Positions 17 to 11,823 of a stretch of DNA of 11,823 bases are shown here, one piece after another (positions within the stretch are counted from its first letter, which is position 1; the number at the start of each line of letters is the position of its first letter). The position numbers were made by a program, and so were the translations under genes. The DNA comes from a virus: the UHGV virus genome UHGV-1844342. One strand, 5' to 3'. The notes under the pieces were generated by a model, which worked only from the letters and a program-made list of their open reading frames with translations, ran no database searches and had not been told where the DNA came from.

Positions 17-490
17 GTGATAACAGGTGTCTGGAAATATAGGGGCAAATCCAGTTGGGTTTGGACTGTACCAAAAGATCACTCAAAAACTGGTGTTGAA
101 ATCGTCAGACCAGTACCTGAAATTCTACGACAGTGGGTAACGGATGTTCACGAAGAGACAAAACATACTGGTTATGTGCTGGGAAGTCTGCGAATTAGAG
201 AAAGCGTAAGCAAGATTGGGGGGAAAATCGGTAAACGTTTGGGCCATGAAAAACAATGGTCACTACACGACCTTAGAAGAACGCTATCTACTCATCTAAG
301 TGATCTCGGTGTTGAATTTTATGTAGTAGAACAACTGTTAGGCCATGCGCTACCTGGCGTGGCAGGTGTTTACAACCGGAGTAAGTTTATGGCTAAAAAA
401 CTGGATGCTCTGGAACTCTGGACTACATATCTCAATAGCATCGCAGGTGCTGATTCAAAAGTGACAATCCTCAAACAAAAGGTTGGTTAA
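17..490 (+). pseudogene. int: Tyrosine integrase (P4/CP4-57 type), C-terminal catalytic fragment only; 5'-truncated or frameshifted
   Basis: Translation has SKTG (conserved Lys region), HDLRRT (His-x-x-Arg), LLGH and GVYNRS (catalytic Tyr) motifs of tyrosine recombinases. In-frame TAA at 14-16 and stops in all three forward frames within the first 45 nt, so the N-terminal domain and box I Arg cannot be read through from upstream. Confidence 0.65.
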
Positions 491-491
491 C

Positions 492-719
492 ATGAAAAAA
501 ATGGCAATTGTTGATAAAAAGGGTCTGGAGTACATTCCTAACATTGACCGAATGATCCGTGAGAAAGAATGTCGGGAGCTAACCACTCTTGCGAACAGCA
601 CACGCTGGAAGCTGGAGAAGGAAGGAAAATTTCCTAAGCGGATCAAGATTGGTTCCACTGCTGTTGCATATCGTCTTTCAGAAGTGCAGGCATGGATTCG
701 AGGTGAGTGGGTAGTTTAA
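492..719 (+). CDS. alpA: AlpA/Vis-family prophage transcriptional regulator (winged HTH)
   Basis: 75-aa product; ...ELTTLANSTRWKLEKEGKFPKRIKIGSTAVAYRLSEVQAWI... fits the AlpA/Vis HTH pattern; sits directly after int as in Gram-negative PICIs; ATG 492 with AAGG 9 nt upstream (track start 483 is a TTG). Confidence 0.8.
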   Translation: MKKMAIVDKKGLEYIPNIDRMIREKECRELTTLANSTRWKLEKEGKFPKRIKIGSTAVAYRLSEVQAWIRGEWVV

Positions 720-744
720 ATTATCTCAGAATAAAATATTATGA

Positions 745-780
745 ATTACTGATTTGAGAATTTGTACTCAAATCAGTAAT
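745..780. terminator. Perfect 14-bp inverted repeat (ATTACTGATTTGAG / CTCAAATCAGTAAT) with 8-nt loop; candidate bidirectional intrinsic terminator between alpA and the convergent minus-strand cargo gene
   Basis: Arms 745-758 and 767-780 are exact reverse complements; AT-rich flanks on both sides; lies between convergent stop codons (719 and 789). Confidence 0.55.
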
Positions 781-788
781 AACATTCT

Positions 789-1325
789 TTATAAGAGATT
801 AAATCCAAATAAAGAGTAATCATATACCGGGGTGCATTGCATTCCACTGAATATGCTGATGTTTTTTTCTGTTTCTATCCTTTTTTCAATAAGTTGTTGT
901 ATATTTTTACAGTACAATTTGTGTGTGATGTTATTATCGTAAGCCTGATATAGCAACGTCAATGTTGACGCTAGGAAACATACAGATAAAATTAAAGTAA
1001 CATATGCGGTTTTTTTATTTTTTGTCCATGATCTATTTGTTTGTGAAATATAAAGAATTCTGATGTGGATAATGGTGAGAGACAATAGCAGGCCACTCAA
1101 TAAAATAAGTATTGGGTTTGCGTATTTTATTAATGGTTGAGAGCAAAAAACTATTATAGCTCCTGTGACTGCGTATGAGAAAAAGGAGTAATTAAACTTC
1201 TTACTCCTTCTCTCAAGTATTTTAATTTCATCTTGTGTGGGGGTTTTAGATGCCTCTAATATAAGTTTATTGAATGTTTCTGTTATCTTGTTTTTTGTGT
1301 TTGTGGCTATTTTTTTTAGATTCAT
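789..1325 (-). CDS. Hypothetical small membrane protein (about 3 predicted TM segments) in an AT-rich cargo island
   Basis: 178-aa ORF on the minus strand; GGAG about 12 nt upstream of ATG; hydrophobic stretches FFSYAVTGAIIVFCSQPLI, PILILLSGLLLSLTIIHIRILYI, AYVTLILSVCFLASTLTLLY; local GC far below the rest of the island. Confidence 0.55.
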   Translation of the reverse strand: MNLKKIATNTKNKITETFNKLILEASKTPTQDEIKILERRSKKFNYSFFSYAVTGAIIVFCSQPLIKYANPILILLSGLLLSLTIIHIRILYISQTNRSWTKNKKTAYVTLILSVCFLASTLTLLYQAYDNNITHKLYCKNIQQLIEKRIETEKNISIFSGMQCTPVYDYSLFGFNLL

Positions 1326-1639
1326 AGCATTCTAACTCCCTTAACTTATTTATTACTTTCTCTTTATGATAAGAGAGGGGAATGACTTGGTAAAGTGATT
1401 TGTCATTAATAATGATAATCCTTGCGATAAATATTTCTGCAAGTTATTTATCTGTTTGTTGCTATCTTGTTAAGCGTTGGGTGTGGTTTATGTTTGGAGC
1501 GACTTTATTTAATCGTGATTTTATGGATTTATATTTATATCCTGTAAGATAAGCGCATGTTAGTTCAGGAGTAGTGTCAGATAAAATTATTCGGAGTAGA
1601 ACTACCTTTTCTGTTTATTGCCAGTATTTACATAGCAAT

Positions 1640-1666
1640 GCGCCGTAGTTACTCACATCACGGCGC
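1640..1666 (-). terminator. Weak candidate hairpin (GCGCCGT ... ACGGCGC, 7-bp stem, 13-nt loop) just downstream of the minus-strand regulator gene
   Basis: Inverted repeat 1640-1646 / 1660-1666, 10 nt past the stop of the 1676-1978 gene; no clean U-tract. Confidence 0.25.
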
Positions 1667-1675
1667 TGATACTAA

Positions 1676-1978
1676 TTATTCAGATTCTTTGGCTTTACGC
1701 CGCTGGAGTTCTTCACGAGCGACGGCTACGAGTTGCCCGATTTCCTCCGCTGCCTTGATGCCGATTTGTTCGACCTTAGCTAAGGCATCCAGTGAAGACA
1801 CGAGGGGATTTTCTCCGCTTCCTTCTGCCTGGCGGCGGGCGATCTCACCGCGCATGGCGGTTACTATGAATCCGGCGTTGCTCTCGCCGTCCAGTTTTAC
1901 GGATTCCATGCCCTCCATAACATCGTGGGGAACCCTGATCGTTGTCATTTGCGATTTTGCATTTTTGTATACAGACAT
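1676..1978 (-). CDS. Putative ribbon-helix-helix (Arc/CopG-like) DNA-binding protein; candidate master repressor of the island, divergent from the early operon
   Basis: 100-aa ORF; N-terminal MTTIRVPHDVMEGMESV...NAGFIVTAMRGEIARRQ resembles a beta-strand/helix/helix RHH fold; divergently arranged relative to the operon starting at 2187 with an operator-repeat array in between. Confidence 0.45.
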   Translation of the reverse strand: MSVYKNAKSQMTTIRVPHDVMEGMESVKLDGESNAGFIVTAMRGEIARRQAEGSGENPLVSSLDALAKVEQIGIKAAEEIGQLVAVAREELQRRKAKESE

Positions 1979-1989
1979 AGTTAATCACC

Positions 1990-2110
1990 AATTTGTTATG
2001 TGTATATCACTATACACAAAAGTGATATATAAAAACACTTGCAATGTATATCACCACAATATAATGTATATCTCACATTATGGTCGCTATGTATCTCACA
2101 ATGATCGATT
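1990..2110. promoter_or_regulatory. Divergent promoter/operator region: four direct copies of TGTAT(A)TC(T)CAC(A) at 2001, 2045, 2065, 2090, one inverted copy (GTGATATA, 2022-2029), and a consensus -10 TATAAT (2060-2065) with TTGCAA (2039-2044) 15 bp upstream
   Basis: Repeats read directly from sequence; the -10 hexamer overlaps the repeats, consistent with a repressed early promoter. Confidence 0.6.
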
Positions 2111-2186
2111 CATAAAAACGACGAAACCCGGCAGTGCGCGAACACTAACCGGGCTTCTAACCAAACCGTTAAACGAGGTAACGATT

Positions 2187-2552
2187 ATGGCTGGAACACA
2201 GCATACCCAAACTCACCCTAAATTTATATACACCTTTCTGGCACTACACCACGACCGCATGGCAGATGGAGCAACTACGGTACATGTAGCCGCTGACACG
2301 CTGGTTGATGCCCGCAAGATGGTTAAGGAGATGGGCTATACTGCGGCTTTCTGGAAAGGGCGTGAAGAAAACACGCTGTTTATTCAGAAATGCGAAAACA
2401 ATTTCATCTGGCGTTTTATCGCCCTGAGTACGGCACAACCGCGCGTGATTCACATCGTGGCCACCAGCGAACAGGAAGCCCGCCAGCAATCCCCGGCTGG
2501 TTGCGTGAGGGTATTCGCCGCCCGTATTCGTCAGGAGGTATGCCGTGCTTAA
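2187..2552 (+). CDS. Hypothetical protein, first gene of the early operon
   Basis: ATG 2187 with GAGG 8 nt upstream; 121 aa; the track ORF 1638-2552 is the same frame, but its upstream part overlaps the operator region and the minus-strand regulator gene. Confidence 0.55.
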   Translation: MAGTQHTQTHPKFIYTFLALHHDRMADGATTVHVAADTLVDARKMVKEMGYTAAFWKGREENTLFIQKCENNFIWRFIALSTAQPRVIHIVATSEQEARQQSPAGCVRVFAARIRQEVCRA

Positions 2553-2730
2553 AACCTTCCGTGTATTTGCCCGAGCGGTTAACCCACGAGGCCACACAAT
2601 TGGTATCACTCAGAACGTGAAGGCTGTTAATGTTCAGACGGCTATTGCTGTGGTGAGAAGCGAATCATCAGAATATGGCTTATCACAAGTCATTATTTCA
2701 GCAGTGTATGAATTAAAAGAGGTGCATTAA
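2545..2730 (+). CDS. Hypothetical small protein (61 aa)
   Basis: GTG start 2545 with strong AGGAGG 6 nt upstream; overlaps the previous stop and the next start (TAATG at 2727-2732), i.e. translational coupling. Confidence 0.5.
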   Translation: MLKTFRVFARAVNPRGHTIGITQNVKAVNVQTAIAVVRSESSEYGLSQVIISAVYELKEVH

Positions 2731-2921
2731 TGCAGGAAATTACATTACACGAAGCCGCTGAACGTGCGCACCAGACAGAAATTATTTGCCGCCTTCTTGA
2801 GGTATACCCGAACAAAATTACAGATGCTGATATATCCGCACTGGCGAGCCTACTGGCGCGTCTTTCGGGAAGTGTCGCTAGTTTTTTGATTGAGGAAGAA
2901 AGTAAGCTGGTGGGGGATTAA
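2730..2921 (+). CDS. Hypothetical small protein (63 aa)
   Basis: ATG with AAGAGG upstream; stop followed immediately by the next start (TAAATG). Confidence 0.5.
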   Translation: MQEITLHEAAERAHQTEIICRLLEVYPNKITDADISALASLLARLSGSVASFLIEEESKLVGD

Positions 2922-3143
2922 ATGAATACAGAACGGGAAGTCTTTTTTAAATTGTTAGCATGTGCAGAAAGTTCATTAACTTTAAATAATTCAGCAAAAG
3001 CAATATTAAATATGTGGCTTGATTGCATAAATGACAATGAAGATGCAAATATTGCTTATGGCCTGTTGTCACTTATTGATGAAGCAGCAGAAAAACTCAA
3101 TGACGCAATAAATAGTGCCCTGTTATCAAATAAGTCGAGTTAA
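2922..3143 (+). CDS. Hypothetical small protein (73 aa), AT-rich moron-like gene inside the early operon
   Basis: ORF with GGGGGA upstream; base composition clearly lower in GC than flanking genes. Confidence 0.45.
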   Translation: MNTEREVFFKLLACAESSLTLNNSAKAILNMWLDCINDNEDANIAYGLLSLIDEAAEKLNDAINSALLSNKSS

Positions 3144-3160
3144 GTCGAGGAATAAATAAT

Positions 3161-3460
3161 ATGGAAATGAAAAATTCTGGCTTTATTGCCAGCGGCCCCG
3201 CTCGGCCTGAATTTATGAACGGCGATATTTACCGCGATAAATACGGCGGCACGGTAACGATTAAAGGCGTGGCAGAACGGCGCATCACTTACCGCCGTGA
3301 GGGGTATAGCTATGACTGCGTGATGCCTGTTTATCAGTTCCGGCGTGATTTTTCCCTGGTATATGCCGCACCTCGCAGTAAGCCCACCAGCAGGGAAAAA
3401 GCGCGGGGAAACATCCAGAAAATGAAAAGCATGATTAACGCATTCAGGGGCAAAAAATGA
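3161..3460 (+). CDS. Hypothetical protein (99 aa), translationally coupled to the replication gene
   Basis: GAGGAA upstream of ATG; stop overlaps the start of the downstream gene (ATGA at 3457-3460). Confidence 0.55.
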   Translation: MEMKNSGFIASGPARPEFMNGDIYRDKYGGTVTIKGVAERRITYRREGYSYDCVMPVYQFRRDFSLVYAAPRSKPTSREKARGNIQKMKSMINAFRGKK

Positions 3461-5208
3461 AACTGGCACCGAACTTAAAAAAACAGCCACGCGACAGACT
3501 GACAGAGGTAATCATCTTTGCAGGTAGTGATGCGTGGAGCCATGCGAAAGAGTGGCAGGAATGGGCGGGTAAACATATTGCCGCCGACGATGTGCCGCCT
3601 GTCGTGCTGGCTGATGAGCAACTGAAAAACATCATCGATTACCGGATCATTGATGAAGATCGTCAGTGTGTGCGTGTTTACCGCGCAGGACATATCACAG
3701 AGCACAGCATGACGCAGATTGTTACGTTACTGGCTGTGGCTGGAGTGAAGACCGTACACGAATACGCGGGGATTACTGACACCAGCCCCGTGGATTTATC
3801 CGACCAGTTGCCGCGACTCAAAGAGGAATGCGAGCGTGGGGAAAGTCTGGTGCTTAATCTTCCGACGAAGCAAAAGGCGCAACTTTCACAGATGGCAGAC
3901 AGTGAACGTGCACAACTACTTGCCGATCGCTTTGATGGTGTGTGTGTTCATGCAGAAAGTGAAATCGTCCACGTATGGCGCGGCGGGGTATGGTGTCCGG
4001 TCAGCACAATGGAGCTGAGCCGCGAAATGGTGGCGATCTATTCAGAGCACAGGGCCACGTTCAGCAAACGTGTAATCAATAACGCCGTGGAAGCGTTAAA
4101 AGTTATTGCCGACCCCATGGGGGAGCCGTCCGGTGATTTACTACCGTTCACTAATGGTGTGCTTAACCTGAAAACGGGGGATTTTTCTCCGCACTTACCG
4201 GAGCACTGGAGCACCACGCACAATGGCATTGAGTACACGCCACCAGTAGCAGGGGAAAACATCCGCGATAATGCGCCAAATTTCCATAAATGGCTTGAAC
4301 ATGCTGCAGGAAAAGACCCGCGCAAGATGATGCGTATATGTGCCGCGTTATACATGATTATGGCGAACCGCTACGACTGGCAGATGTTCATTGAGGCCAC
4401 CGGAGACGGGGGAAGCGGTAAGAGTACATTTACCCATATTGCCACCCTGCTTGCTGGCAAACAGAACACCGTAAGCGCAGAGATGACATCACTCGATGAT
4501 GCAGGAGGGCGCGCGCAGGTTGTCGGGAGTCGTCTTATCGTCCTTGCCGATCAGCTGAAATATACGGGGGAAGGCACGGGCATCAAGAAAATCACGGGAG
4601 GCGATCCCGTTGAAATTAACCCGAAATATGAGAAGCGATTCACGACGATAATAAGGGCGGTGGTACTGGCAACCAATAACGACCCGATGATCTTTACCGA
4701 ACGGGCCGGAGGTGTGTCACGCCGTCGGGTGATTTTCCGGTTCGACAACATTGTAAGGGAGGACGAAAAAGACAAGGAATTACCGGAAAAGATAGCGGCA
4801 GAAATCCCCGTAATTATCCGCCGCTTGCTGGCTAATTTTGCTGACCCTGAAAAGGCACGGGCTTTATTACTGGAACAGCGTGACGGTGATGAAGCTCTGG
4901 CAATAAAGCAGCAAACGGATCCGGTTGTTGAGCTTTGCGCGGCGCTGGAGTTTCTGGAGGAAGCTCGTGGGCTAATGATGGGCGGTGGTGGTGACACCGT
5001 GAAGTACACGACCAGAAACAGCCTTTACCGTGTCTATATGGCCTTCATGGCATATACAGGAAAGGGGAAATGTTTGAGCGTGAATGAGTTCGGAAAGGCT
5101 ATGAGGTCAGCGGCGAAAGTTTACGGATATGAATATATTACGCGAAAAGTTAAGGGAGTCACGCAGACCAACGCAACGACTACTGATGATTGCGATGCGT
5201 TTTTATAA
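3457..5208 (+). CDS. Replication protein: SF3 helicase with primase-associated N-terminal region (P4 alpha C-terminal / D5-like family; PICI pri-rep analogue)
   Basis: 583 aa; Walker A EATGDGGSGKST (about nt 4395-4430), Walker B-like RLIVLADQ (about 4531-4554), motif C-like VLATNND; iteron origin immediately downstream. Confidence 0.85.
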   Translation: MKLAPNLKKQPRDRLTEVIIFAGSDAWSHAKEWQEWAGKHIAADDVPPVVLADEQLKNIIDYRIIDEDRQCVRVYRAGHITEHSMTQIVTLLAVAGVKTVHEYAGITDTSPVDLSDQLPRLKEECERGESLVLNLPTKQKAQLSQMADSERAQLLADRFDGVCVHAESEIVHVWRGGVWCPVSTMELSREMVAIYSEHRATFSKRVINNAVEALKVIADPMGEPSGDLLPFTNGVLNLKTGDFSPHLPEHWSTTHNGIEYTPPVAGENIRDNAPNFHKWLEHAAGKDPRKMMRICAALYMIMANRYDWQMFIEATGDGGSGKSTFTHIATLLAGKQNTVSAEMTSLDDAGGRAQVVGSRLIVLADQLKYTGEGTGIKKITGGDPVEINPKYEKRFTTIIRAVVLATNNDPMIFTERAGGVSRRRVIFRFDNIVREDEKDKELPEKIAAEIPVIIRRLLANFADPEKARALLLEQRDGDEALAIKQQTDPVVELCAALEFLEEARGLMMGGGGDTVKYTTRNSLYRVYMAFMAYTGKGKCLSVNEFGKAMRSAAKVYGYEYITRKVKGVTQTNATTTDDCDAFL

Positions 5209-5220
5209 AAAATGGCAATG

Positions 5221-5455
5221 GTTATCTACCTTGTCTACCTGACTGAAATAAAATACTTTTATTTCAATGTATTAATGCAGGTAGATAACTATTTTTCACT
5301 GTCTACCTGTTATCTACCTTATCTACCCATTTTTGTAGACAGGTAAGGAGACGGGTAGAGATGAGGTAGACAGCTATTTGGGGCTGTCTACCTCCCTGAA
5401 ACCCGCGCCATTACTGGCCTGATAACTAATCAGGTAGACAAGGTAGACAAGGTGG
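5221..5455. repeat. Iteron-type replication origin: about 12 copies of GGTAGAC(A)/GTCTACC (with GGTAGATA variants) in both orientations flanking an AT-rich spacer (5241-5278)
   Basis: Copies at about 5223, 5233, 5280, 5301, 5312, 5321, 5335, 5353, 5365, 5385, 5433, 5442; tandem pair GGTAGACAAGGTAGACAAGG at 5433-5451; directly 3' of the helicase gene as in PICI/P4 ori. Confidence 0.8.
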
Positions 5456-5497
5456 TGGTGCACAAAAAACTTTTTAAACGAGGGGGTAAAAATAAAA

Positions 5498-5740
5498 ATG
5501 CACACATCAGGAAAACTGAACAAACATATAAAGCCACATTACCGCGCCCTTGATATGGCTGAACACTGGCTAAGGGTGGCGATTAAGGCAATAGACCGCA
5601 ACGCCGGGGAAGGATACGCGAAAGCACATCCCGAACTGATAAGCGCATTCATGACAACGGCGGCTGCAAACTTTGCCACGCTGACCGAACGGGAGATTGC
5701 CGAAGCGGAGGAAGTGACAACCATCAATATTAAGTCCTGA
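5498..5740 (+). CDS. Hypothetical protein (80 aa)
   Basis: ATG with GAGGGGG upstream; no overlapping conflict. Confidence 0.5.
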   Translation: MHTSGKLNKHIKPHYRALDMAEHWLRVAIKAIDRNAGEGYAKAHPELISAFMTTAAANFATLTEREIAEAEEVTTINIKS

Positions 5741-5751
5741 GAGCAGGCAGC

Positions 5752-6201
5752 ATGACGGCGCAAATAGCAGCTTACGGGCGGCTGGTGGACGACCCACAGG
5801 TAAAACATACCAGCAAGGGAACACCCATGACACTGGCACGGATGGCGGTATCTTTGCCATGCAGCCAGGCAGATGACGGAACGGCGACGATGTGGTTATC
5901 TGTGCTGGCGTTTGGCAGACAAGCCGACGCGCTGGCAAAGCATCACAAAGGCGAACTCCTGAGCGTGGCGGGTAATATGCAGGTGAGCCAGTGGAGCGGA
6001 CAGAACGGGGAAACGCGGCAGGGCTGGCAGGTTATCGCAGACAGCGTAATCAGTGCCAGAACGGTGCGACCGGGCGGCAAAAAAGGTCAACAGGGGCAGG
6101 CTACTGATGCACTGAACAGAGCAAAACAACAGGCAGATCAGCAAGGAAGCCATCCACCAGTGGGAGATAATGAGCAATGGGGAGATGATATTCCGTTTTA
6201 A
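5752..6201 (+). CDS. ssb: Single-stranded DNA-binding protein
   Basis: 149 aa; OB-fold-like N-terminal region, Gly/Gln-rich linker, and canonical acidic C-terminal tail ...GDDIPF. Confidence 0.8.
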   Translation: MTAQIAAYGRLVDDPQVKHTSKGTPMTLARMAVSLPCSQADDGTATMWLSVLAFGRQADALAKHHKGELLSVAGNMQVSQWSGQNGETRQGWQVIADSVISARTVRPGGKKGQQGQATDALNRAKQQADQQGSHPPVGDNEQWGDDIPF

Positions 6202-6219
6202 ATATTGCCAATAAAAAAG

Positions 6220-6243
6220 GCCGGAAAAAATATATTTTCCGGC
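6220..6243. terminator. Hairpin GCCGGAAAA / TTTTCCGGC (9-bp stem, 6-nt loop) between the replication and morphogenesis modules
   Basis: Exact inverted repeat 6220-6228 / 6235-6243; an A-run precedes it on + (so a T-run follows it on the minus strand); function as a module boundary is inferred. Confidence 0.35.
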
Positions 6244-6411
6244 ATGCTACATAAATCCCGACCAAAGGGAGTGAAGATATTAACACTAATTATCCGCGCT
6301 GAAGTTGTCATCCCAAAACTTTATACAACATTGCACTCGGTTGCATGTGTTAGCATGACAAATATCGGTGATAGCATATATCCACAATTATTTTTAATGA
6401 ATGTAAAGAGG

Positions 6412-7458
6412 ATGAGTATGGTTGATTTATATTCGCCTGCCCAGCTTGTGCAGGTGGCTAATGCAGAAGAGGTGCAAAAAAAATTAAATGCATTGTTTAC
6501 CAGTTTGTTTTTCACTCGCTCGGTAATGTTTGAATCAAGAGACATTATTCTTGATACAATCGACGATCCAAATATCCCAATTGCAGCGTTTTGTTCTCCT
6601 ATGGTGGGTAGTAAAGTTTCACGTGACGAAGGGTACGAATCAAAGACAATTCGTCCAGGCTATATGAAGCCGAAAAGCAGCATTGATCCAAATAAGTTAG
6701 CTGTGCGCCCTGCTGGTGTATCACCTGAGCAATACAATGCTTTTGGAGCGCGTAATATTAAAGTTAAACAGGCGATTGTAAATCAGGCTAAAGCTATTCG
6801 TGCACGTATTGAATGGCTTGCCGTTCAGGCAATCACAACGGGGAAAAATATCATTGAGGGCGATGGCATTGAACGCTATGAACTGGACTGGAATATAAAA
6901 CCACAAAATATTATCACGCAGTCCGGCGGTGCTGAGTGGTCAGGTAAGGATAAAGAAACTTTTGATCCAAATGATGATATTGAGAGCTACGCAGAATTTA
7001 GTGAGGGCGTCACTAATATCATCATTATGGGCGGTAATGTATGGAAGAAATACCGTTCATTCAGAGCGATAAAAGAGGCTCTGGATACCCGTCGTGGTTC
7101 TAATTCCGAACTGGAAACGGCCCTTAAAGACCTTGGTGATTCGGTGAGTTTTAAAGGGTATATGGGCGATGTTGCGATTGTTGTATACAGCGGGCGTTAT
7201 ACCGACGAGGACGGAACTGAAAAACATTTCCTTGATCCTGATTTGATGGTGCTTGGCAATACGGCTCTTCAGGGGATTGTCGCCTATGGCGGTATTCAGG
7301 ATCCGGAGCTAATCCGAATGGGGCTGACTAAAGCCGAACTTGCACCGAAAAACTATATTGTGCCTGGTGATCCGGCTATTGAATATGTGCAGACACATTC
7401 AGCACCACAGCCAATACCGGCCCGCATCAATCGTTTTGTTACCGTTCGCATTGGCTAA
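6412..7458 (+). CDS. Major capsid protein, divergent homolog of lambda gpE (HK97 fold)
   Basis: ATG 6412 preceded by AAGAGG; C-terminal about 200 aa align with the lambda E fragment present in this same window (shared blocks ITQSGG.EWS..DK.T.DP.DDIE.YA, DTRRGS.SELETA.KDLG, GDVAIVVYSG, MVLGNT), roughly 55-60 percent identity there by eye; N-terminal third far more divergent. Confidence 0.85.
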   Translation: MSMVDLYSPAQLVQVANAEEVQKKLNALFTSLFFTRSVMFESRDIILDTIDDPNIPIAAFCSPMVGSKVSRDEGYESKTIRPGYMKPKSSIDPNKLAVRPAGVSPEQYNAFGARNIKVKQAIVNQAKAIRARIEWLAVQAITTGKNIIEGDGIERYELDWNIKPQNIITQSGGAEWSGKDKETFDPNDDIESYAEFSEGVTNIIIMGGNVWKKYRSFRAIKEALDTRRGSNSELETALKDLGDSVSFKGYMGDVAIVVYSGRYTDEDGTEKHFLDPDLMVLGNTALQGIVAYGGIQDPELIRMGLTKAELAPKNYIVPGDPAIEYVQTHSAPQPIPARINRFVTVRIG

Positions 7459-7467
7459 GGGGGAGCA

Positions 7468-7809
7468 ATGGCTACTCATTACACTGAACTCATGGCTGGC
7501 ACTGAAGCACTGGTGACTACGCTGGGGATATTTTCAGCTAATAAAGGGGTAATTCCTGCATTTACGCCACTGATGCAGGAAGATGCAACAGGTGCACTGG
7601 TGGTATGGGATGGTTCGAGCGTAGGTAAAGCGGTTTATGTTTCCGCTGTACAAATCGACACCGCGAAAAAAACACAGGCTCAGGTCTATAAGACAGGTGT
7701 CTTAAATGTTGATGCTCTGAACTGGCCTGAGTCTGTAAAAGAACTGTCAGTAAAGATTGCAGCGTTTGTTGGCTCAGGTATTTCTGTTCAGCCGCTGGCT
7801 CGTGTGTAA
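7468..7809 (+). CDS. Head decoration protein, lambda gpD-like
   Basis: 113 aa; AAGGGGGAG RBS; blocks TPLMQEDATGALVVWDG, VYKTGVLNVDALNWPES and FVGSGISVQ resemble lambda gpD (TPLM..VAWDG, FYKSGTFRYEDVLWPEA, FAGTAISIV) as recalled. Confidence 0.7.
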   Translation: MATHYTELMAGTEALVTTLGIFSANKGVIPAFTPLMQEDATGALVVWDGSSVGKAVYVSAVQIDTAKKTQAQVYKTGVLNVDALNWPESVKELSVKIAAFVGSGISVQPLARV

Positions 7810-7820
7810 AGGGGGATACA

Positions 7821-8204
7821 ATGCAGAATCATTACAATGACCTTAAGCCAATTGCCGAAATGATGTATCCGGATCCAGCAGTAGAGGAATTAAAGGCTAT
7901 TGCTGACAAAATGCGTTTAAGCGAGCGTCTTGTTGATATGAATCAGGTGATGGAACTTACAACCCTGAGTCGTCGTACACTGCTAAACCTTGAAGCACGT
8001 GGAGAGTTCCCCGAACGCGTGCAGGTTACGGAAGGGCGTAAGGCCTGGTATTTAAGCGAAGTGATCGACTGGATAAACAATATTCCGCGCGCTTCTGAAT
8101 ATTGCCGCGTACCTGTCCCAAAAAAGCCAGATGCGGCGCTATGCCTCAAGATTGAGCGTGTACGCCGCAATGCGCGGGATGGTCGCTATAAGCTGATTGG
8201 TTGA
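7821..8204 (+). CDS. Second AlpA-family HTH protein with about 40-aa N-terminal extension; candidate late/packaging regulator
   Basis: 127 aa; AAGGGGGA RBS; core ELTTLSRRTLLNLEARGEFPERVQVTEGRKAWYLSEVIDWI matches the AlpA/Vis winged-HTH pattern. Confidence 0.7.
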   Translation: MQNHYNDLKPIAEMMYPDPAVEELKAIADKMRLSERLVDMNQVMELTTLSRRTLLNLEARGEFPERVQVTEGRKAWYLSEVIDWINNIPRASEYCRVPVPKKPDAALCLKIERVRRNARDGRYKLIG

Positions 8205-8219
8205 TGAAATTAGGGCCCG

Positions 8220-8300
8220 TTCTGGCTGGCGGGTCCTTTCCGGCGATCCAGAACGTTACGGGGCGGCGACCTCGCGGGTTTTCGCTATTTATGAGCATTT
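8220..8300 (+). other. cos: Lambda-type cos site: cosQ-like segment, cosN 12-nt cohesive-end sequence GGGCGGCGACCT (8261-8272), and proximal cosB segment
   Basis: 8223-8294 reads TGGCTGGCGGGTCCTTTCCGG.GATCC....GTTACG GGGCGGCGACCT CGCGGGTTTTCGCTATTTATGA, matching the joined right-end/left-end sequence of phage lambda as recalled; a Nu1-like gene follows as in lambda. Confidence 0.85.
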
Positions 8301-8405
8301 TTAGGGGACTGGTGGTGGTTTTGTTGTTCGCTATATCTGTATGAATAATAAGAGAAAAACACAATCAACACACCAACCTGAAACAGTAATTAAGTTGTGG
8401 TATCA

Positions 8406-8948
8406 ATGAAATTGCACCTGATGAACAAAAAAAACATGGCAAAAAGTTGCCGTGTAAGCGCCACTGCGTTCGATAAGTGGGGAGTGATTCCCGTCGAGCG
8501 TAAGGGCCGCGAGGCGTTTTATGATGTCGCCAGTGTAATAGATAATCGGGTTAACAATGCAATCAGCCAGATTACAAACGAAACGGGCGAGATTGATGAT
8601 GATGAACTCCTACGAGTCAGGATCAGATTGCTGACAGCACAGGCAGAGGCGCAGGAGCTTAAAAACGAGCGCGAACGCGGCGACGTTATTGATACAGCGT
8701 TTTGTATATACGTGCTTTCAAAACTGGCGAGTCAGATTTCTTCAATCATGGACAGCCTGCCGCTTGCCATGACAAGGAAGTTTCCCGACATGAAGCCGTC
8801 TATGCTGGATGGACTGAAAAAAGAAGTTATCAGAGCCTGTAACGCATGCGCAAAACTTGACGAAAACATACCGCTGATGCTGTCCGATTATCTGATGGAA
8901 ACTGCCGGAAACGTACCGGATAAGTTGCAGCTGAATAAAGATAAGTAA
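8406..8948 (+). CDS. Terminase small subunit, lambda Nu1-like (winged HTH N-terminus plus gpA-interaction C-terminus)
   Basis: C-terminal two-thirds aligns with recalled lambda Nu1 (LTAQAEAQELKNER...DTAFCIYVLSKLASQISSIMDSLPLAMTRKFPDM...KLDENIPLMLSDYL vs LTRAQADAQELKNARD...ETAFCTFVLSRIAGEIASILDGLPLSVQRRFPEL...ALDELIPGLLSEYI); N-terminus more divergent; start 8406 by analogy with lambda (8421 is an alternative; track start 8397 is GTG). Confidence 0.8.
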   Translation: MKLHLMNKKNMAKSCRVSATAFDKWGVIPVERKGREAFYDVASVIDNRVNNAISQITNETGEIDDDELLRVRIRLLTAQAEAQELKNERERGDVIDTAFCIYVLSKLASQISSIMDSLPLAMTRKFPDMKPSMLDGLKKEVIRACNACAKLDENIPLMLSDYLMETAGNVPDKLQLNKDK

Positions 8949-8959
8949 CGTAGTACGCT

Positions 8960-9241
8960 ATGACTGAATCCGAAATACTGCGATTAATCCGCCGTGCTTG
9001 TGGAATCAGCAAGCAGCATGACGAACAGGCCACGCAGCCGGACAGCGTGATCGCCGAAAATTACGCGCGTGTTGTTGCTGATGTGATGCGCCGTGATGGT
9101 ATTGAGCTTAACGGCGTGGATATGCGCGACATACGGATCAGATTCCTTGAGTTGCTGGCATACCGTCGCCGTTCTCAACAACGAAGGGAGAGCGCGAAAA
9201 ACACTTATCAGTGGAAGAAGCCGGAACGGTTGCGGCGGTAG
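8960..9241 (+). CDS. Hypothetical basic protein (93 aa) in the position occupied by the large terminase gene in lambda
   Basis: ORF directly downstream of the Nu1-like gene (12-nt gap); Arg-rich C-terminus; no obvious SD; no similarity to lambda gpA N-terminus that I can see. Confidence 0.45.
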   Translation: MTESEILRLIRRACGISKQHDEQATQPDSVIAENYARVVADVMRRDGIELNGVDMRDIRIRFLELLAYRRRSQQRRESAKNTYQWKKPERLRR

Positions 9242-9983
9242 ATTCCTGATATTCAGGAAAACCACGAATCCGGGGGTTTTACTGGCGCGGTGTACACGGT
9301 GGAACGTATAGCGTTACCTGACTTATTGCATTGTAAAAAGTTGAAAGGCACGGCCTGTAAGATGGGATGTTGTGAGTAGTTTAAAGCTACCCGCAAATTC
9401 TTTCGTTGTGCTGGCACAGGCGGTTAAACCGTCGGTAACTGGATAATCCCCACTGGGGGAAAAGCTGGCTACATCCCTCACATCTGAGGACTGATAACGC
9501 AAAATTGCGTTGGCTGGCAGAGTGCAAATTTGCACGATGGCCTAACCCATTGATTCTTTCGAAAACCCCCATTGGGGGAGAACGGGGGAATAAACCTGAC
9601 TCATTGATTTTTCCACAATCCTTAATTTGAGGAAGCTGGATAGTTGCACTACCCAAAAAGTGCAGTACCCACATAGCTGCTTAATAGCGTTTATTTTTTC
9701 CGCACACCTCAAATCTGAGAAGGCCGGAATGATGACATGGCAGGATTATGATTCCTTGATTTCAAGGAGTCCTCCAGTGTGAAAATGAAATTATCTGGGC
9801 TGGTGGGTGAGTTGCTGATCTGCAACTCGGCTATGAAACTTAATAATCGAACAGCATGTAAATTCATTTCTGTGTATTGCAGCATGTATTGCAACATAGT
9901 CATTCTGGTAGAGATTATGCTCTATTTTTCCTCTTATATCATTCACATACTTACGTCATTGACTCATGTAGCCGAAGCATGAG

Positions 9984-10760
9984 GTGAATCCGCAGATGAC
10001 CCTGCGTCGCCTGCCGGATGAAGATCCGCAGAATCTGGCGGACCCGGCTTACCGCCGCCGTCGCATCATTATGCAGAACATGCGTGACGAAGAGCTGGCC
10101 ATTGCCCAGGTCGAAGAGATGCAGGCAGTTTCTGCCGTGCTTAAGGGCAAATACACCATGACCGGTGAAGCTTTCGATCCGGTTGAGGTGGATATGGGCC
10201 GCAGTGCGGCCAACAACATCACGCAGTCCGGCGGCACGGAGTGGAGCAAGCGTGACAAGTCCACGTATGACCCGACCGACGATATCGAAGCCTACGCGCT
10301 GAACGCCAGCGGAGTGGTGAATATCATCGTGTTTGATCCGAAAGGCTGGGCGCTGTTCCGTTCCTTCAAAGCCGTCAAGGAGAAGCTGGATACTCGTCGC
10401 GGCTCTCATTCCGAGCTGGAGACAGCGGTGAAAGACCTGGGCAAAGCGGTGTCCTACAAGGGGATGTATGGCGATGTGGCCATCGTCGTGTATTCCGGAC
10501 AGTACGTGGAAAACGGCGTCAAAAAGAACTTCCTGCCGGACAACACGATGGTGCTGGGGAACACTCAGGCACGCGGTCTGCGCACCTATGGCTGCATTCA
10601 GGATGCGGACGCACAGCGCGAAGGCATTAACGCCTCTGCCCGTTACCCGAAAAACTGGGTGACCACCGGCGATCCGGCGCGTGAGTTCACCATGATTCAG
10701 TCAGCACCGCTGATGCTGCTGGCTGATCCTGATGAGTTCGTGTCTGTACAACTGGCGTAA
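9984..10760 (+). pseudogene. E: Major capsid protein gpE, 5'-truncated fragment (C-terminal about 258 codons), near-identical to lambda E
   Basis: Translation NPQMTLRRLPDEDPQNLADPAYRRRRIIMQNMRDEELAIAQ...EFVSVQLA matches lambda gpE from about residue 85 to the end as recalled; in-frame TAG at 9969-9971 and non-lambda AT-rich sequence upstream; the track start is a GTG that is internal in lambda. Confidence 0.85.
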
Positions 10761-10801
10761 TCATGGCCCTTCGGGGCCATTTTCTCTCTGTGGAGGAGTT
10801 C

Positions 10802-11200
10802 ATGACGAAAGATGAACTGATTGCCCGTCTTCAGGAGCTGGGTGAGCAACTGAACCGCGATGTCAGTTTGACGGGAACGAAAGAAGAACTGGCGCTTCGT
10901 GTGGCAGAGCTGGAAGAAGAGCTTGATGACACGGATGAAACTGCCGGTCAGGACACCCCTCTCAGCCGGGAAAATGTGCTGACCGGGCATGAAAATGAGG
11001 TGGTATCAGCGCAGCCGGATACCGTGATTCAGGATACGGCTGAACTGGTCACGGTTGTGGCACTGGTGACGCTGCATACTGATGCACTTCACGCCACGCG
11101 GGATGAACCTGTGGCATTTGTGCTGCCGGGAACGGCGTTCCGTGTCTCTGCCGGTGTGGCAGCTGAAATGACAGAGCGCGGCCTGGCCAGAATGCAATAA
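10802..11200 (+). CDS. FI: DNA-packaging protein FI, lambda-like
   Basis: MTKDELIARL...LTGTKEELALRVAELEEELDDTDETAGQDTPLSRENVLTGHENEV...AEMTERGLARMQ matches lambda gpFI as recalled; GGAGGAG RBS before ATG 10802 (the track start 10763 is an upstream extension). Confidence 0.9.
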   Translation: MTKDELIARLQELGEQLNRDVSLTGTKEELALRVAELEEELDDTDETAGQDTPLSRENVLTGHENEVVSAQPDTVIQDTAELVTVVALVTLHTDALHATRDEPVAFVLPGTAFRVSAGVAAEMTERGLARMQ

Positions 11201-11211
11201 CGGGAGGCGCT

Positions 11212-11823
11212 GTGGCTGATTTCGATAACCTGTTCGATGCTGCCATTGCCCGCGCCGATGAAACGATACGCGGGTACATGGGAACGTCAGCCACCATGAC
11301 ATCCGGTGAGCAGTCCGGTGCTGTGATACGTGGTGTTTTTGATGACCCTGAAAATATCAGCTATGCCGGACAGGGCGTGCGCGTTGAAGGCTCCAGCCCG
11401 TCCCTGTTTGTCCGGACTGATGATGTGCGGCAGCTGCGGCGCGGCGACACGCTGACTTCCATTGCCCGGCAATTCGGCACGACGGTCACGAGCATTGTCG
11501 CAATCAATGATCTAAAAAATGAATCTGATCGCAATGAGCAGGACGGCATCAGGTATATGCTTATGGGCTTCTTTCAAGGGCCTCGCAATTTGTACCAACA
11601 CAATCACATTGGCTCCGGTGTAAGCAATTCTATTTCCGTAATCATTGAAGCATCTTTCTTCCTCCATCTACTTGATGGGCACAGCATTACTCAAAACGGA
11701 CGCTGGATTCCGGCCAAAGCAGATTATCACGAGATTTATCAAAAGATGCCCAAGCATATTGATCGTTGGAAGCTTGTACGCCTACTAAAGAAGCGTGATC
11801 GTAGGTTGAAGAAAGATCAATGA
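11212..11823 (+). CDS. FII: FII-like head-tail joining protein: first about 82 codons lambda FII-like, then an unrelated lower-GC C-terminal extension (chimeric or disrupted gene)
   Basis: GTG start with GGGAGG RBS; MADFDNLFDAAIARADETIRGYMGTSAT...VRQLRRGDTLT matches lambda gpFII as recalled, then diverges at about nt 11458 (lambda continues IGEENFWV...); the frame nevertheless stays open for about 120 more codons to the TGA at the window end. Confidence 0.6.
   Translation: MADFDNLFDAAIARADETIRGYMGTSATMTSGEQSGAVIRGVFDDPENISYAGQGVRVEGSSPSLFVRTDDVRQLRRGDTLTSIARQFGTTVTSIVAINDLKNESDRNEQDGIRYMLMGFFQGPRNLYQHNHIGSGVSNSISVIIEASFFLHLLDGHSITQNGRWIPAKADYHEIYQKMPKHIDRWKLVRLLKKRDRRLKKDQ

Follow-up and report, generated by a model that had tools for sequence, protein, structure and literature searches.

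We report that the satellite DNA analysed here, a stretch of 11,823 nucleotides called the window below, carries a packaging module at 8231-8948 in which a nicking site of helper type is followed by a cosB site and a small terminase gene (terS) that are not of helper type. Our reading, to which we give a probability of roughly 0.6, is that the module joins a helper-type cosQ-cosN-I2 half to a satellite-specific cosB/TerS cassette that would steer the large terminase (TerL) of the helper. The core of this reading, a nicking site in common with the helper and a private cosB and TerS DNA-binding domain (DBD), had been proposed in a first-pass annotation, and the comparison of satellites with their helpers supports it: the nicking site appears common to both, and cosB and the DBD differ from the helper's.

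The satellite and its surroundings

The following features define the element around the module.

6418-7458, plus strand: E-like major capsid protein (Pfam Phage_cap_E; 43% identity to lambda E)
7468-7809, plus strand: D-like decoration protein (Pfam HDPD)
7821-8204, plus strand: AlpA-type HTH protein (Pfam Phage_AlpA)
8960-9241, plus strand: 93-aa ORF of unknown function (phrog_1561, E 1e-53)
9970-9979, plus strand: attR identity block AGCCGAAGCA, after which come the 3' portion of helper gene E (9984-10760), FI and FII

These features mark the element as a PICI of the helper-embedded kind (type 11capE / E:Phage_cap_E:80) that interrupts gene E of a lambda-like prophage; the first reading was right to place the module on a satellite. 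The genes run int-alpA-DUF4222-primase-SSB-E-D-HTH-cos-terS, all co-oriented, and are followed by the attR block and the lambda-like 3' part of E, FI and FII. The attR block matches the att block listed for E:Phage_cap_E:80 elements (PMC10111431 supplement); the attL side lies outside the window, at whose start int is cut. In strain FDAARGOS_1296 (L001) window positions 53-11456 are present with 100% identity, and the composite can be seen there as a whole, a complete lambda-like prophage whose gene E holds the element. A PDB search with the upstream HTH protein returned only an AlpA structure, and an Rfam search of the window found no RNA family.

The order E-D-x-cos-terS is kept in every relative examined, and all 17 related contexts examined are satellites with no TerL adjoining. 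By megablast the terS module is intact in 181 of 5426 complete E. coli genomes (rppA, discussed below, is found in 97), and it occurs in PICIs of several genera at four or more integration sites. The prototype of these helper-embedded PICIs (HE-PICIs), 11capE of E. coli NRG857c (Tommasini et al. 2023, PMC10111431), is the same kind of element, with its integrase acting at about codon 80 of gene E, the same order of genes and the late genes E, D and HTH, and has been described as devoid of terS (PMC10111431). It possesses a lambda-type cosB (R3, R2, R1) and a truncated lambda Nu1 with about 13 native residues only, whereas the element studied here has a complete N15-like terS.

A nicking site of helper type

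The first half of the module comprises the following parts, in a numbering in which lambda bp 1 corresponds to window position 8261.

8231-8237, plus strand: cosQ (GGGTCCT), bp -30 to -24 relative to the left cohesive end
8256-8277, unstranded: cosN
8261-8272: 12-nt cohesive end GGGCGGCGACCT, with flanking CG as in lambda-like cosN
8283-8295, plus strand: I2-like box CGCTATTTATGAG, cos bp 23-35, between cosN and R3'

Both the sequence and the position of cosQ are the same in lambda, phage 21, N15 and cos1 of EcCICFT073, and cosQ is invariant in 17 of 17 related satellite loci; on this side 26 of 32 positions match lambda. Around cosN, of which the window has one copy, the identity to lambda is complete (40/40 at window 8255-8294, lambda bp -6 to +34), and by homology with lambda the nicks would fall before 8261 on the top strand and after 8272 on the bottom strand. 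The I2-like box is common to lambda, phage 21, N15 and EcCICFT073, and 12 of its 13 columns are invariant among 16 distinct satellite sequences. In a blastn search of 50,697 phage records, 91 lambda-like phages matched over a cos segment of 73-80 bp (E down to 5e-22), and no match extended past that segment. The likeness to lambda stops after about bp 41, the identity past bp 34 being 7/16 over bp 35-50 and 29/77 over bp 69-145, which bears out the early observation that cosQ, cosN and the first bases of cosB match lambda before the sequence diverges.

A cosB that differs from the helper's

Downstream of the common segment we recognise three elements.

8310-8329, plus strand: R3' CTGGTGGTGGTTTTGTTGTT, candidate site for the satellite TerS, with its core at 8311-8328 (cos bp 51-68)
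8330-8361, unstranded: A+T-rich spacer between R3' and R2', at the position of lambda I1 (7 of 32 columns invariant)
8362-8381, minus strand: R2' block CAATCAACACACCAACCTG, occupying the place of lambda R2 (cos bp about 102-121)

The core motif of R3' is GGTGGTGGTkTTGTTGTT, i.e. (GGT)3-kTT-GTT-GTT. Fifteen of its 18 columns are invariant in 16 distinct sequences from five genera (Escherichia, Enterobacter, Citrobacter-type, Kosakonia and Superficieibacter); the flanks vary in the same 16 sequences, with 3 of 15 and 7 of 32 columns invariant. This conserved 18-bp element at bp 51-68 is unrelated in sequence to lambda R3, but it occupies the register of lambda R3 (bp 50-65) and of N15 R3 (bp 48-59). 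Its near-invariance across genera and its register support the first-pass proposal of a G/T-rich private R-site at 8311-8330. R3' goes with the terS gene and not with the gene upstream, which encodes either a 127-aa HTH protein or an unrelated 137-aa protein; the AlpA-like protein was considered as the binder of the G/T element and rejected, since relatives that have the unrelated 137-aa protein in its place retain R3'. In one relative, L069, a 6-bp deletion brings R3' 6 bp nearer to cosN; in lambda, a shift of this kind should interfere with nicking. Of 17 relatives, 9-10 read GCTGGTGG at the left edge of R3', which is a perfect Chi site; several relatives, like the window, lack Chi.

No match to the IHF consensus WATCAANNNNTTR with one mismatch or fewer was found in the spacer at 8330-8361, and a role of IHF is thus unsupported. 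The R2' consensus CAAyACACCmACyTG is kept in all relatives, and the block may tentatively be regarded as a second, inverted TerS site. The inverted G/T-rich copy that had been expected at about 8360-8378 holds as a conserved block; its likeness to the reverse complement of the element at 8311-8330 does not, as 9-11 of 14 positions match, which in most sequences is not above shuffles (14-mer inverted-match test), and a repeat search of the window did not report the proposed inverted repeat. R1 has no match in cosB, nor is there room for it, as the gene starts at bp 146 (bp 191 in lambda), which leaves the satellite cosB about 45 bp shorter. The lambda-type layout, with the IHF site I1 between R3 and an inverted R2, plus R1, is therefore not present. 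What the satellite has in common with lambda Nu1 and cosB-lambda (R3-I1-R2-R1) is the protein family, the domain order, identical cosQ, cosN and I2, and the placing of R3' and R2' at the positions of lambda R3 and R2 (bp 105-120 for the latter); it differs in the R sequences, which are unrelated, and in having neither R1 nor a recognisable IHF site.

Four helper/satellite pairs (L001, L073, L076 and L042) allow both partners to be compared directly. In each, the helper has a lambda-type Nu1 and lambda R3 CGTTTCCGTTCTTCTT, and the satellite has R3' and an N15-like TerS. The surrounding prophages possess lambda-type R3/R2/R1, and the embedded satellites a G/T-rich cosB and a divergent TerS, so a cosB and TerS identical to those of the resident helper, which would have spoken against private specificity, are not what these pairs contain. 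In Kosakonia, satellite and helper have the same variant cohesive end GGGCGGCAGACT and different cosB.

A full-length small terminase without a large one

The gene that follows cosB is divided as listed.

8406-8948, plus strand: terS, 180-aa Nu1-family small terminase, N15 gp1-like, full length
about 8406-8579, plus strand: DBD, aa 1-58
about 8580-8780, plus strand: middle or self-association region
8781-8948, plus strand: C-terminal tail, motif IPlMLsdYLmE

Judged against homologues, the start is likely the ATG at 8406, giving 180 aa, rather than the GTG at 8397. A promoter/terminator scan gave no sigma-70-like promoter for terS and nothing else of use. Pfam Phage_Nu1 (PF07471) is matched with 87 bits against a cutoff of 30, at profile positions 33-162 only, and phrog_57, 'terminase small subunit', is matched over the full length (residues 2-174). 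BLASTP aligns the protein with lambda Nu1 over its full length at 38% identity with 19 gaps (E 2e-37), with four deletions in the DBD and linker and a different recognition helix. Compared with lambda part by part, the DBD shows 36% identity with 15 gapped positions; the middle region reaches 45-51%, the upper value belonging to lambda residues 100-140, and the tail 39-45%. The adjacent Nu1-like protein with a divergent DNA-binding N-terminus, as the first reading had it, is accordingly a full-length small terminase of the Nu1 family.

We found 201 TerS relatives, those named in their source being annotated 'terminase small subunit', and within the satellite family the identity is at least 57%. 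A scan of genome contigs brought up lambda-type Nu1 genes for the most part, many of which lay on very small contigs of unrelated genomes; just two hits, from Kosakonia and Superficieibacter, belonged to the family. In the Superficieibacter TerS the family DBD is joined to a C-terminal half that is lambda-like (64-67% identity), a composition that indicates recombination with a helper-type TerS.

With synonymous divergence of up to 0.5-1.0, dN/dS of terS is 0.09-0.21 overall; the DBD is the most constrained part (mostly 0.00-0.10, one pair 0.19), and its residues S14, C15, V17, T20, A21, F22, D23, K24, W25 and G26 are invariant across the family. In the wHTH alignment to Nu1/gp1, W25 and the wing residues K33-G34 are conserved (AlphaFold pLDDT 56). 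The AlphaFold2 model from a 12-sequence family alignment (mean pLDDT 55.7, pTM 0.27) is too poor to confirm the fold, and a PDB sequence search with TerS gave nothing relevant, neither Nu1 1J9I nor the RppC chains.

Within the family the tail, with dN/dS of 0.12-0.32, is conserved less than any other part (mean majority 0.58). The motif IPxhLxxY[IL]xE is found in all satellite TerS proteins, in lambda and in N15, and is absent in phage 21 gp1. Of the Nu1-like C-terminus that the protein had been said to retain, this short motif stands and strong conservation does not: the identity to lambda or N15 is only 40-45%. The tails of lambda and phage 21, which differ in TerL specificity, are 32% identical. 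With a tail so variable and only 40-45% lambda-like, direct binding to the helper TerL is not assured. No TerL gene follows terS in the window or in the 17 related loci, where the 93-aa ORF or accessory genes are found instead; the arrangement usual in the Nu1 family, in which the gene overlaps and lies directly upstream of the large terminase gene, does not occur here.

The DNA-binding domain belongs with N15

Lambda Nu1 had been taken as the reference relative at the outset, which missed a closer one: the nearest phage protein is N15 gp1, with 48% identity in a near-gapless alignment (5 gaps, E 6e-57) versus 38% for lambda. For the DBD the values are 55% to N15 and 36% to lambda, and the indel pattern and the recognition helix AFDKWGV are those of N15. 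The equivalents of positions 20 and 24 of lambda TerS, which determine specificity (PMC4669245), are D and V in N15 and in the satellite family alike; two N-terminal helix residues differ (VQ versus AT) when the recognition helices are compared. On this alignment the DBD is of the N15 gp1 class, and its specificity would be private with respect to the helper but not unique.

N15 R3 is GAGGTTGTTGTT (bp 48-59), and in register with it R3' reads ACTGGTGGTGGT. Six of 12 positions match, comprising every G at bp 51/54/57 and every T at bp 53/56/59, and the middle bases of the triplets differ; (GGT)3 in place of (GTT)3 puts three differences inside the critical block, of which bp 54-59 count most in N15. 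Given these mid-triplet differences, the pairing of the DBD with R3' is drawn from their co-conservation only.

It has been shown that the chimera TerS lambda N15hy4, an N15 DBD with a lambda C-terminus, works with lambda TerL on cosN-lambda as well as cosN-N15, and that N15-cosB DNA is not packaged by lambda or phage 21 (PMC4669245). Monarch-type prophages join the N15 helix to an R3-I1-R2-R1 cosB. With this group (N15, Monarch and N15hy4; PMC4669245) the satellite module shares indels, helix, specificity residues, the distance of R3 (here the candidate R3') from cosN and the G-x-T triplets; N15 gp1 works with a lambda-type TerL and lambda-like cosN/cosQ, and the R3-I1-R2 part of Monarch's cosB resembles the present layout of R3, spacer and inverted block. 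The differences are that the satellite terS has no TerL beside it, that R1 is missing, that R3' has (GGT)3 followed by kTTGTTGTT, and that its C-terminal half resembles lambda much less than N15 gp1 does (tail 40-45% versus 81%). In N15 a simple cosB goes with a remote rR2 copy in gene 1; an inverted R3-like (rR2) copy was not found within the gene at 8406-8948; the conserved block at the R2 position is present instead.

The slot of the Rpp system

The Rpp / cos1 system of EcCICFT073 and enterobacterial cos-PICIs (Fillol-Salom et al. 2019, PMC6739421; Murialdo & Feiss 2022, PMC9026076) occupies the same place. EcCICFT073 and L069 are 94% identical up to L007 position 19600, just past TATTTATGA; beyond this breakpoint, directly 3' of the common cosN/I2 sequence, they are unrelated across cosB+rppA and cosB'+terS, and further downstream similar again. 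Thus terS is syntenic with rppA, and the swap breakpoints flank cosB and the gene. The 93-aa ORF stands after terS here and after rppA in EcCICFT073 (79% nucleotide identity to L007 20374-20667). By this synteny the cassette is the apparent full-length-TerS counterpart of the cosB+rpp cassette of EcCICFT073.

The two systems have in common the slot (capsid-decoration-x-cosQ/cosN/I2-[private cosB + specificity protein]-93-aa ORF), lambda-like cosQ/cosN with a differing cosB, a TerS-type DBD, in the satellite protein a putative winged helix, and the presumed purpose, a redirection of lambda-type helper packaging to the island. As in Rpp islands, the gene lies just downstream of the island cos with a cosB unlike the helper's. 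The protein itself was considered as an Rpp and rejected on sequence and length. Rpp proteins have 144-153 aa, with a TerS-like DBD and a dimerisation helix of their own; they have no tail for TerL and depend on a TerS borrowed from the phage, whereas the satellite TerS has 180 aa with middle domain and tail and is collinear with Nu1/gp1 to the C-terminus; no BLASTP alignment between TerS and RppA was obtained, and hhalign gave a probability of 0.1%. The core of the EcCICFT073 cosB, ACCACCACC (bp 55-63), lies in the opposite orientation to the (GGT)3kTTGTTGTT found here and is the exact reverse complement of GGTGGTGGT of this cassette.

Proposed mechanism and competing explanations

We propose that the cosQ-cosN-I2 segment, being the same as in lambda-like phages, can be nicked, and packaging terminated on it, by a helper TerL of gpA type. 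After induction the satellite TerS would use its recognition helix (SATAFDKWGV) to bind R3' on concatemers of the satellite, recruit the helper TerL by the tail motif and position it on the common cosN, and the satellite DNA would be cut and packaged into helper-derived heads. A helper TerS of lambda type, which needs lambda R3/R2, should not use the satellite cosB. The comparisons given above show sequence identities, genomic context, conservation, purifying selection and the boundaries of the cassette; from them we infer the binding at R3', the direct recruitment of TerL, that the helper TerS is kept out, and any interference with helper growth or packaging.

It may be suggested instead that the satellite TerS is an adaptor in the manner of Rpp, giving R3' specificity and reaching TerL only through mixed oligomers with helper Nu1 formed by the middle region, so that the helper TerS would still be needed and helper packaging simultaneously poisoned. 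Rpp acts via heterocomplexes with phage TerS, which is essential for EcCICFT073 transfer, and terS sits exactly in the rppA slot; the middle region is moreover the most Nu1-like part of the protein and the tail its most variable one. We regard this as unlikely, however, for a full-length protein whose tail motif is under purifying selection and which has no sequence similarity to RppA. In addition, the lambda DBD dimer-interface residues I11, F12 and G13 are S, C and R here, and for this reason heterodimers of the Rpp kind at the level of the DBD are not expected.

The resemblance to N15 raises the question whether there is any private specificity, since cosB and TerS could be those of an N15- or Monarch-type helper, the lambda-type prophage serving only as integration target. 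The helix and specificity residues that match N15, the register of R3', the N15 cohesive end GGGCGGCGTCCG of the satellite relative L067 and the Monarch combination of N15 helix with a R3-I1-R2-R1 cosB are all compatible with such a helper. It is nevertheless very improbable in our opinion: the nearest TerS with an adjoining TerL has at most 48% identity, below the internal identity of the satellite family; R3' departs from N15 R3 inside the critical block; 4 of 4 examined embedded helpers with a TerS-type satellite are lambda-type; the Kosakonia satellite copies the unusual cosN of its lambda-type helper; and a user of the helper TerS would not need a full-length terS under purifying selection. 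We give hardly any credence to the proposal that terS is a drifting captured late gene like the E and D homologues, with the G/T element an operator or promoter element or a Chi-like signal. It is true that helper late genes are picked up by the late zones of HE-PICIs, EcCICFT073 can be transferred without its PICI capsid genes, the prototype 11capE has only a truncated lambda Nu1, and a Chi site marks the left edge of R3' in part of the relatives. Drift is at odds with the low dN/dS, strongest in the DBD, and with the number of genomes bearing an intact copy, and the alternative roles of R3' with its fixed distance from cosN in R3 register, its independence of the upstream regulator gene and the lack of Chi in the window and several relatives.

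Implications

Two routes of piracy are known in this field, an own small terminase in pac-type SaPIs and the conversion of the helper small terminase by Rpp in cos-type E. coli PICIs. TerS-S of SaPIs (with Ppi) is alike in principle, a satellite small terminase working with the helper large terminase and recognising only satellite DNA; SaPIs are different in being headful (pac) and not cos, in their Gram-positive hosts, in another TerS family and in a separate interference protein. If our reading is right, the present module adds a third route, in which a complete small terminase and a cosB that both belong to the cos satellite are combined with the nicking site of the helper. It is a variant of known phage-piracy mechanisms, widespread and so far unanalysed in the searchable literature.

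More speculatively, and with doubts that outweigh our confidence, the cos satellites of enterobacteria might carry interchangeable specificity cassettes, each a private cosB with the protein that reads it, on a universal cosQ-cosN-I2 stub; the N15-class TerS cassette, with (GGT)3 for its R3, would then add a fourth packaging specificity to the lambda family and be ancestral to Rpp, which would have arisen by truncation. If this were true, the reverse-complement relation between ACCACCACC and GGTGGTGGT would be a relic of the origin of Rpp from a TerS cassette, and TerS would package satellite DNA with the helper TerL alone and no helper TerS, unlike any characterised cos satellite.

Should the module work as we suggest, the origin of Rpp, a question asked by the authors who described it, could be addressed by direct comparison of two cassettes from the same slot, and natural pairs of DBD and R-site would be at hand for the study of how lambda-family small terminases read DNA. 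It would also bear on the range of helpers that can mobilise the islands; defence and virulence genes are found on some of these.

Organisation of the element

By ORF calls and Pfam, the satellite genes of the window are all co-oriented. Their arrangement matches the layout of helper-embedded PICIs (HE-PICIs) with the site E:Phage_cap_E:80 described by Tommasini, Mageeney and Williams (PMC10111431), whose supplement also contains the att block AGCCGAAGCA. E. coli FDAARGOS_1296 is 100% identical over window positions 53-11456, and there a complete lambda-like prophage harbours the element in its gene E.

Features of the window, with satellite genes all in one orientation
17-490, tyrosine integrase, partial
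483-719, AlpA
3161-3460, DUF4222
3457-5208, D5-type primase
5752-6201, SSB
6418-7458, lambda E-like major capsid protein (43% identity to lambda E)
7468-7809, D-like decoration protein
7821-8204, AlpA-type HTH protein
8231-8237, cosQ, GGGTCCT
8261-8272, cohesive-end sequence GGGCGGCGACCT
8406-8948, small terminase gene terS
8960-9241, 93-aa ORF
9970-9979, att block AGCCGAAGCA
9984-10760, lambda-type E gene (3' two-thirds), directly after the att block, with FI and FII next

The satellite brings its own E-like capsid and D-like decoration genes (6418-7809) and disrupts gene E of its helper; the capsid ORF, when listed as 6205-7458, includes a spurious 71-codon N-terminal extension. An IS66 copy splits the satellite primase gene in FDAARGOS_1296 (L001 16086-18674), and the primase of the window is intact (3457-5208). 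In the window, an apparently non-coding stretch of about 700 bp (9242-9969) separates the packaging module from attR. Relatives (L061-L068, L073, L077) carry variable accessory genes between terS and attR (FRG with DUF3892, an abortive-infection family protein, HEPN with DUF262, DUF2971), many of which look like anti-phage defence genes; a TIR-domain protein lies near alpA, outside this segment.

Positions 1-52 and the last 367 bases (11457-11823) match no complete E. coli genome, the final 384 bases giving no megablast match at all, and at both ends the window diverges abruptly from all such genomes with a 100% match elsewhere. Base 53 cuts the reading frame of the integrase, and the FII ORF continues into a LysM-like and then a Hypoth_Ymh-like stretch (Pfam). 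Either the source strain may carry a composite that is rearranged or truncated, or the assembly may be chimeric.

A lambda cosN next to an N15-class small terminase

The first-pass annotation had described a lambda-identical cosN joined to a divergent cosB and an adjacent Nu1-like small terminase, and it was correct in this. Positions 8255-8294 equal lambda bp -6 to +34 (40/40, lambda bp 1 at 8261), identity beyond bp 34 drops to 7/16 and then 29/77, and the adjoining ORF belongs to the Nu1 family (Pfam PF07471, 87 bits against a cutoff of 30, over profile positions 33-162 only; phrog_57 along its full length). On the cosQ side 26/32 positions match lambda. There is one cosN in the window, and when 50,697 phage records were searched by blastn a core of 73-80 bp alone matched, in 91 lambda-like phages.

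Homologues and the RefSeq annotation place the start of this protein, TerS, at ATG 8406, giving 180 aa. Retention of a Nu1-like C-terminus had also been claimed, which is overstated, since this region shows no special conservation: compared with lambda, identity is 36% in the DNA-binding domain (DBD), where 15 positions are gapped, 45-51% in the middle region and 39-45% in the tail. Among phage proteins, N15 gp1 matches best (48%, E 6e-57, 5 gap positions), with lambda Nu1 at 38% (19 gaps) and phage 21 gp1 at 35%; DBD identity is 36% to lambda but 55% to N15. Features common to N15 and the satellite family are deletions in the turn, in the wing and after helix 3, the recognition-helix core AFDKWGV, and D and V in place of lambda Q20 and E24, specificity determinants according to Feiss and colleagues (PMC4669245). 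Judged by these alignments, the satellite TerS is, like that of N15, a Nu1-family protein of the N15 class, and differs from helper Nu1. It is not a member of the Rpp proteins, an assignment that we rejected because neither BLASTP nor profile comparison detected similarity to RppA of EcCICFT073; RppA matches TerS profiles over its DBD only.

Relatives and candidate recognition sites

A protein search returned 201 relatives of 169-186 aa, the source-named ones being annotated as terminase small subunit. All 17 genomic contexts recovered are satellites in which terS has no adjoining large terminase gene: gene-E HE-PICIs (Escherichia, Enterobacter-type metagenome contigs, Enterobacter soli, Kosakonia), an HE-PICI in portal gene B, chromosomal PICIs at roxA-phoQ (the EcCICFT073 site) and at cspD-clpS, and a Superficieibacter element, of which the cos-terS block was covered. 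The cos-terS block is constant across them, and the replication genes and the gene immediately upstream of cos vary.

Sixteen distinct cos sequences were aligned in register, with a 6-bp deletion variant (L069, a PICI at the EcCICFT073 site) set aside. Invariant columns make up 12/13 of an I2-like box CGCTATTTATGAG, 15/18 of GGTGGTGGTkTTGTTGTT (8311-8328, cos bp 51-68; R3' hereafter), 3/15 of the linker preceding R3', 7/32 of the spacer following it and 11/22 of cosN. Among the E. coli elements of this set, terS has a synonymous divergence of 0.3-0.7 over the whole gene and of at most ~1.0 in the DBD, with dN/dS of 0.09-0.21 overall and mostly 0.00-0.10 in the DBD (0.19 in one pair). Conservation of the 18-mer amid such divergence argues that this non-coding element is under constraint. 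It lies where lambda has R3 (bp 50-65) and where N15 has its own R3 (bp 48-59, GAGGTTGTTGTT); in register with the latter, the G bases at bp 51/54/57 and the T bases at bp 53/56/59 are common and the middle base of each triplet differs. The proposal of a G/T-rich private R-site at 8311-8330 thus gains from both the invariant columns and the R3 register, and R3' is a candidate site for TerS. For the second proposed element, about 8360-8378, a conserved block does exist at the lambda R2 position (CAAyACACCmACyTG, 8362-8381; R2'), but its description as an inverted repeat of the first is not significant. No IHF consensus was found in the spacer between R3' and R2', and no R1 in the cosB of the window.

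R3' accompanies terS both where the gene upstream encodes the AlpA-like protein of 127 aa and where it encodes an unrelated one of 137 aa, so a role as operator for the upstream regulator is unlikely.

A perfect top-strand Chi site, GCTGGTGG, stands at the left edge of R3' in 9-10/17 related satellites (L064-L068, L008, L009, L074, L076); window 8309-8316 reads ACTGGTGG, one mismatch from Chi. The GGT copy number varies, with five copies from bp 45 in L070-L072. L069 lacks 6 bp in the region of cos bp 45-68, which brings the whole R3' and downstream cosB 6 bp nearer to cosN; in lambda, impaired nicking would be expected from a displacement of this kind.

Helper and satellite compared

The helpers of three E. 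coli loci (L001, L073, L076) and of Kosakonia (L042) encode a lambda-type Nu1, with a C-terminus identical to lambda or one residue from it, and have a lambda-type R3, CGTTTCCGTTCTTCTT; the satellites embedded in them have R3' and an N15-like TerS. Sameness of cosB and Nu1-like protein with the resident helper, named beforehand as speaking against private specificity, is therefore absent from all four pairs. Satellite and helper of Kosakonia have in common an unusual cohesive end, GGGCGGCAGACT, and differ in cosB, which is what a common nicking enzyme with separate recognition subunits predicts. The sharing of cosN is not universal, since the L073 satellite has a variant, GGGCGTCAGGCG, absent from its helper. 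The same GGGCGTCAGGCG is found in 11capE of NRG857c, where it differs from the helper's cohesive end at 5/12 positions, and one Enterobacter soli relative (L067) has the N15 cohesive end GGGCGGCGTCCG.

Exchange of cassettes in the packaging slot

EcCICFT073 (L007) and the L069 PICI occupy the same chromosomal site, and their identity is 94% over the stretch that runs from the capsid gene across cosQ and cosN to TATTTATGA, ending at L007 19600. Beyond this point cosB with rppA in the former and cosB' with terS in the latter are unrelated, and likeness returns at an inverted second cos and the 93-aa ORF. A third allele of the slot is seen in the prototype HE-PICI, 11capE, as a lambda-type cosB (R3, R2, R1) followed by a Nu1 remnant, which explains its published description as lacking terS (PMC10111431); the remnant is fused to unrelated sequence (L077 16034-16480). 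By megablast, among 5426 complete E. coli genomes, terS of the window type occurs in 181 and rppA in 97.

EcCICFT073 (L007 20265-20340) and some TerS-type relatives (L069 10686-10759) have this second cos, cos2, with the specificity gene on one side of it and the 93-aa ORF on the other; the window has 11 bp only at this place (8948-8960) and a single cosN. The gene upstream of cos is either the 127-aa AlpA-type HTH gene (window 7821-8204; phrog_2790, close to PDB 8c3t) or one for the unrelated 137-aa protein (L007 19084-19497; phrog_1999), which weakly resembles the scaffold-like C-terminal part of a head maturation protease (phrog_53); either form is found with either rppA or terS.

According to Murialdo and Feiss (PMC9026076), four PICIs have an identical Rpp-type cosB core, ACCACCACC. 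This core (EcCICFT073 cos1 bp 55-63) is the exact reverse complement of GGTGGTGGT (window 8311-8319, bp 51-59), with a 4-bp shift. Between the two reader proteins no sequence similarity was detected. The match may be a relic of a common cassette origin, or chance in a low-complexity repeat.

A proposed packaging mechanism

We suggest, with a probability of roughly 0.6, that the satellite TerS would attach to R3', and perhaps also R2', on satellite concatemers and deliver the helper large terminase, TerL, to the common cosN, with the common cosQ serving termination. Such a mechanism is physically plausible from the genetics of lambda N15hy4, whose chimeric TerS (N15 DBD, lambda C-terminus) works with lambda TerL on either cosN; N15-cosB DNA is not packaged by lambda or phage 21 (PMC4669245). 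A contact between TerS and TerL is suggested by the tail motif IPxhLxxY[IL]xE, which all satellite TerS proteins have in common with lambda and N15 and which phage 21 lacks, and by the Superficieibacter TerS, whose C-terminal half is 64-67% lambda-like and is joined to a DBD of the family, suggestive of recombination with genes of helper type. A weak point is that the tail is the most variable region of TerS in the family, with 40-45% identity to lambda. An N15-class DBD may also fail to exclude helper DNA.

The main rival reading, which we hold much less likely, is that TerS acts in the manner of Rpp, through mixed oligomers with helper Nu1 and with the helper TerS still required: the well-conserved middle domain would mediate such oligomers, but a heterodimer at the level of the DBD is disfavoured, lambda interface residues I11, F12 and G13 being S, C and R in TerS. 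Two minor rivals, a helper of N15/Monarch type with the same specificity and a captured terS gene devoid of function, seem unlikely from the observations given.

Small terminases have been counted among the generic core components of PICIs, terS homologues were noted in 'some' Gram-negative PICIs, and RefSeq already annotates this terS gene as terminase small subunit, so the presence of a TerS-like gene is not new. In our literature search, whose incomplete coverage gives absence of evidence only, we found no analysis of a Nu1/N15-type TerS with its own cosB in cos-type PICIs and no mention of such a TerS as allelic with rpp. We propose that the satellite TerS module works in a manner like that of SaPI TerS and of Rpp.
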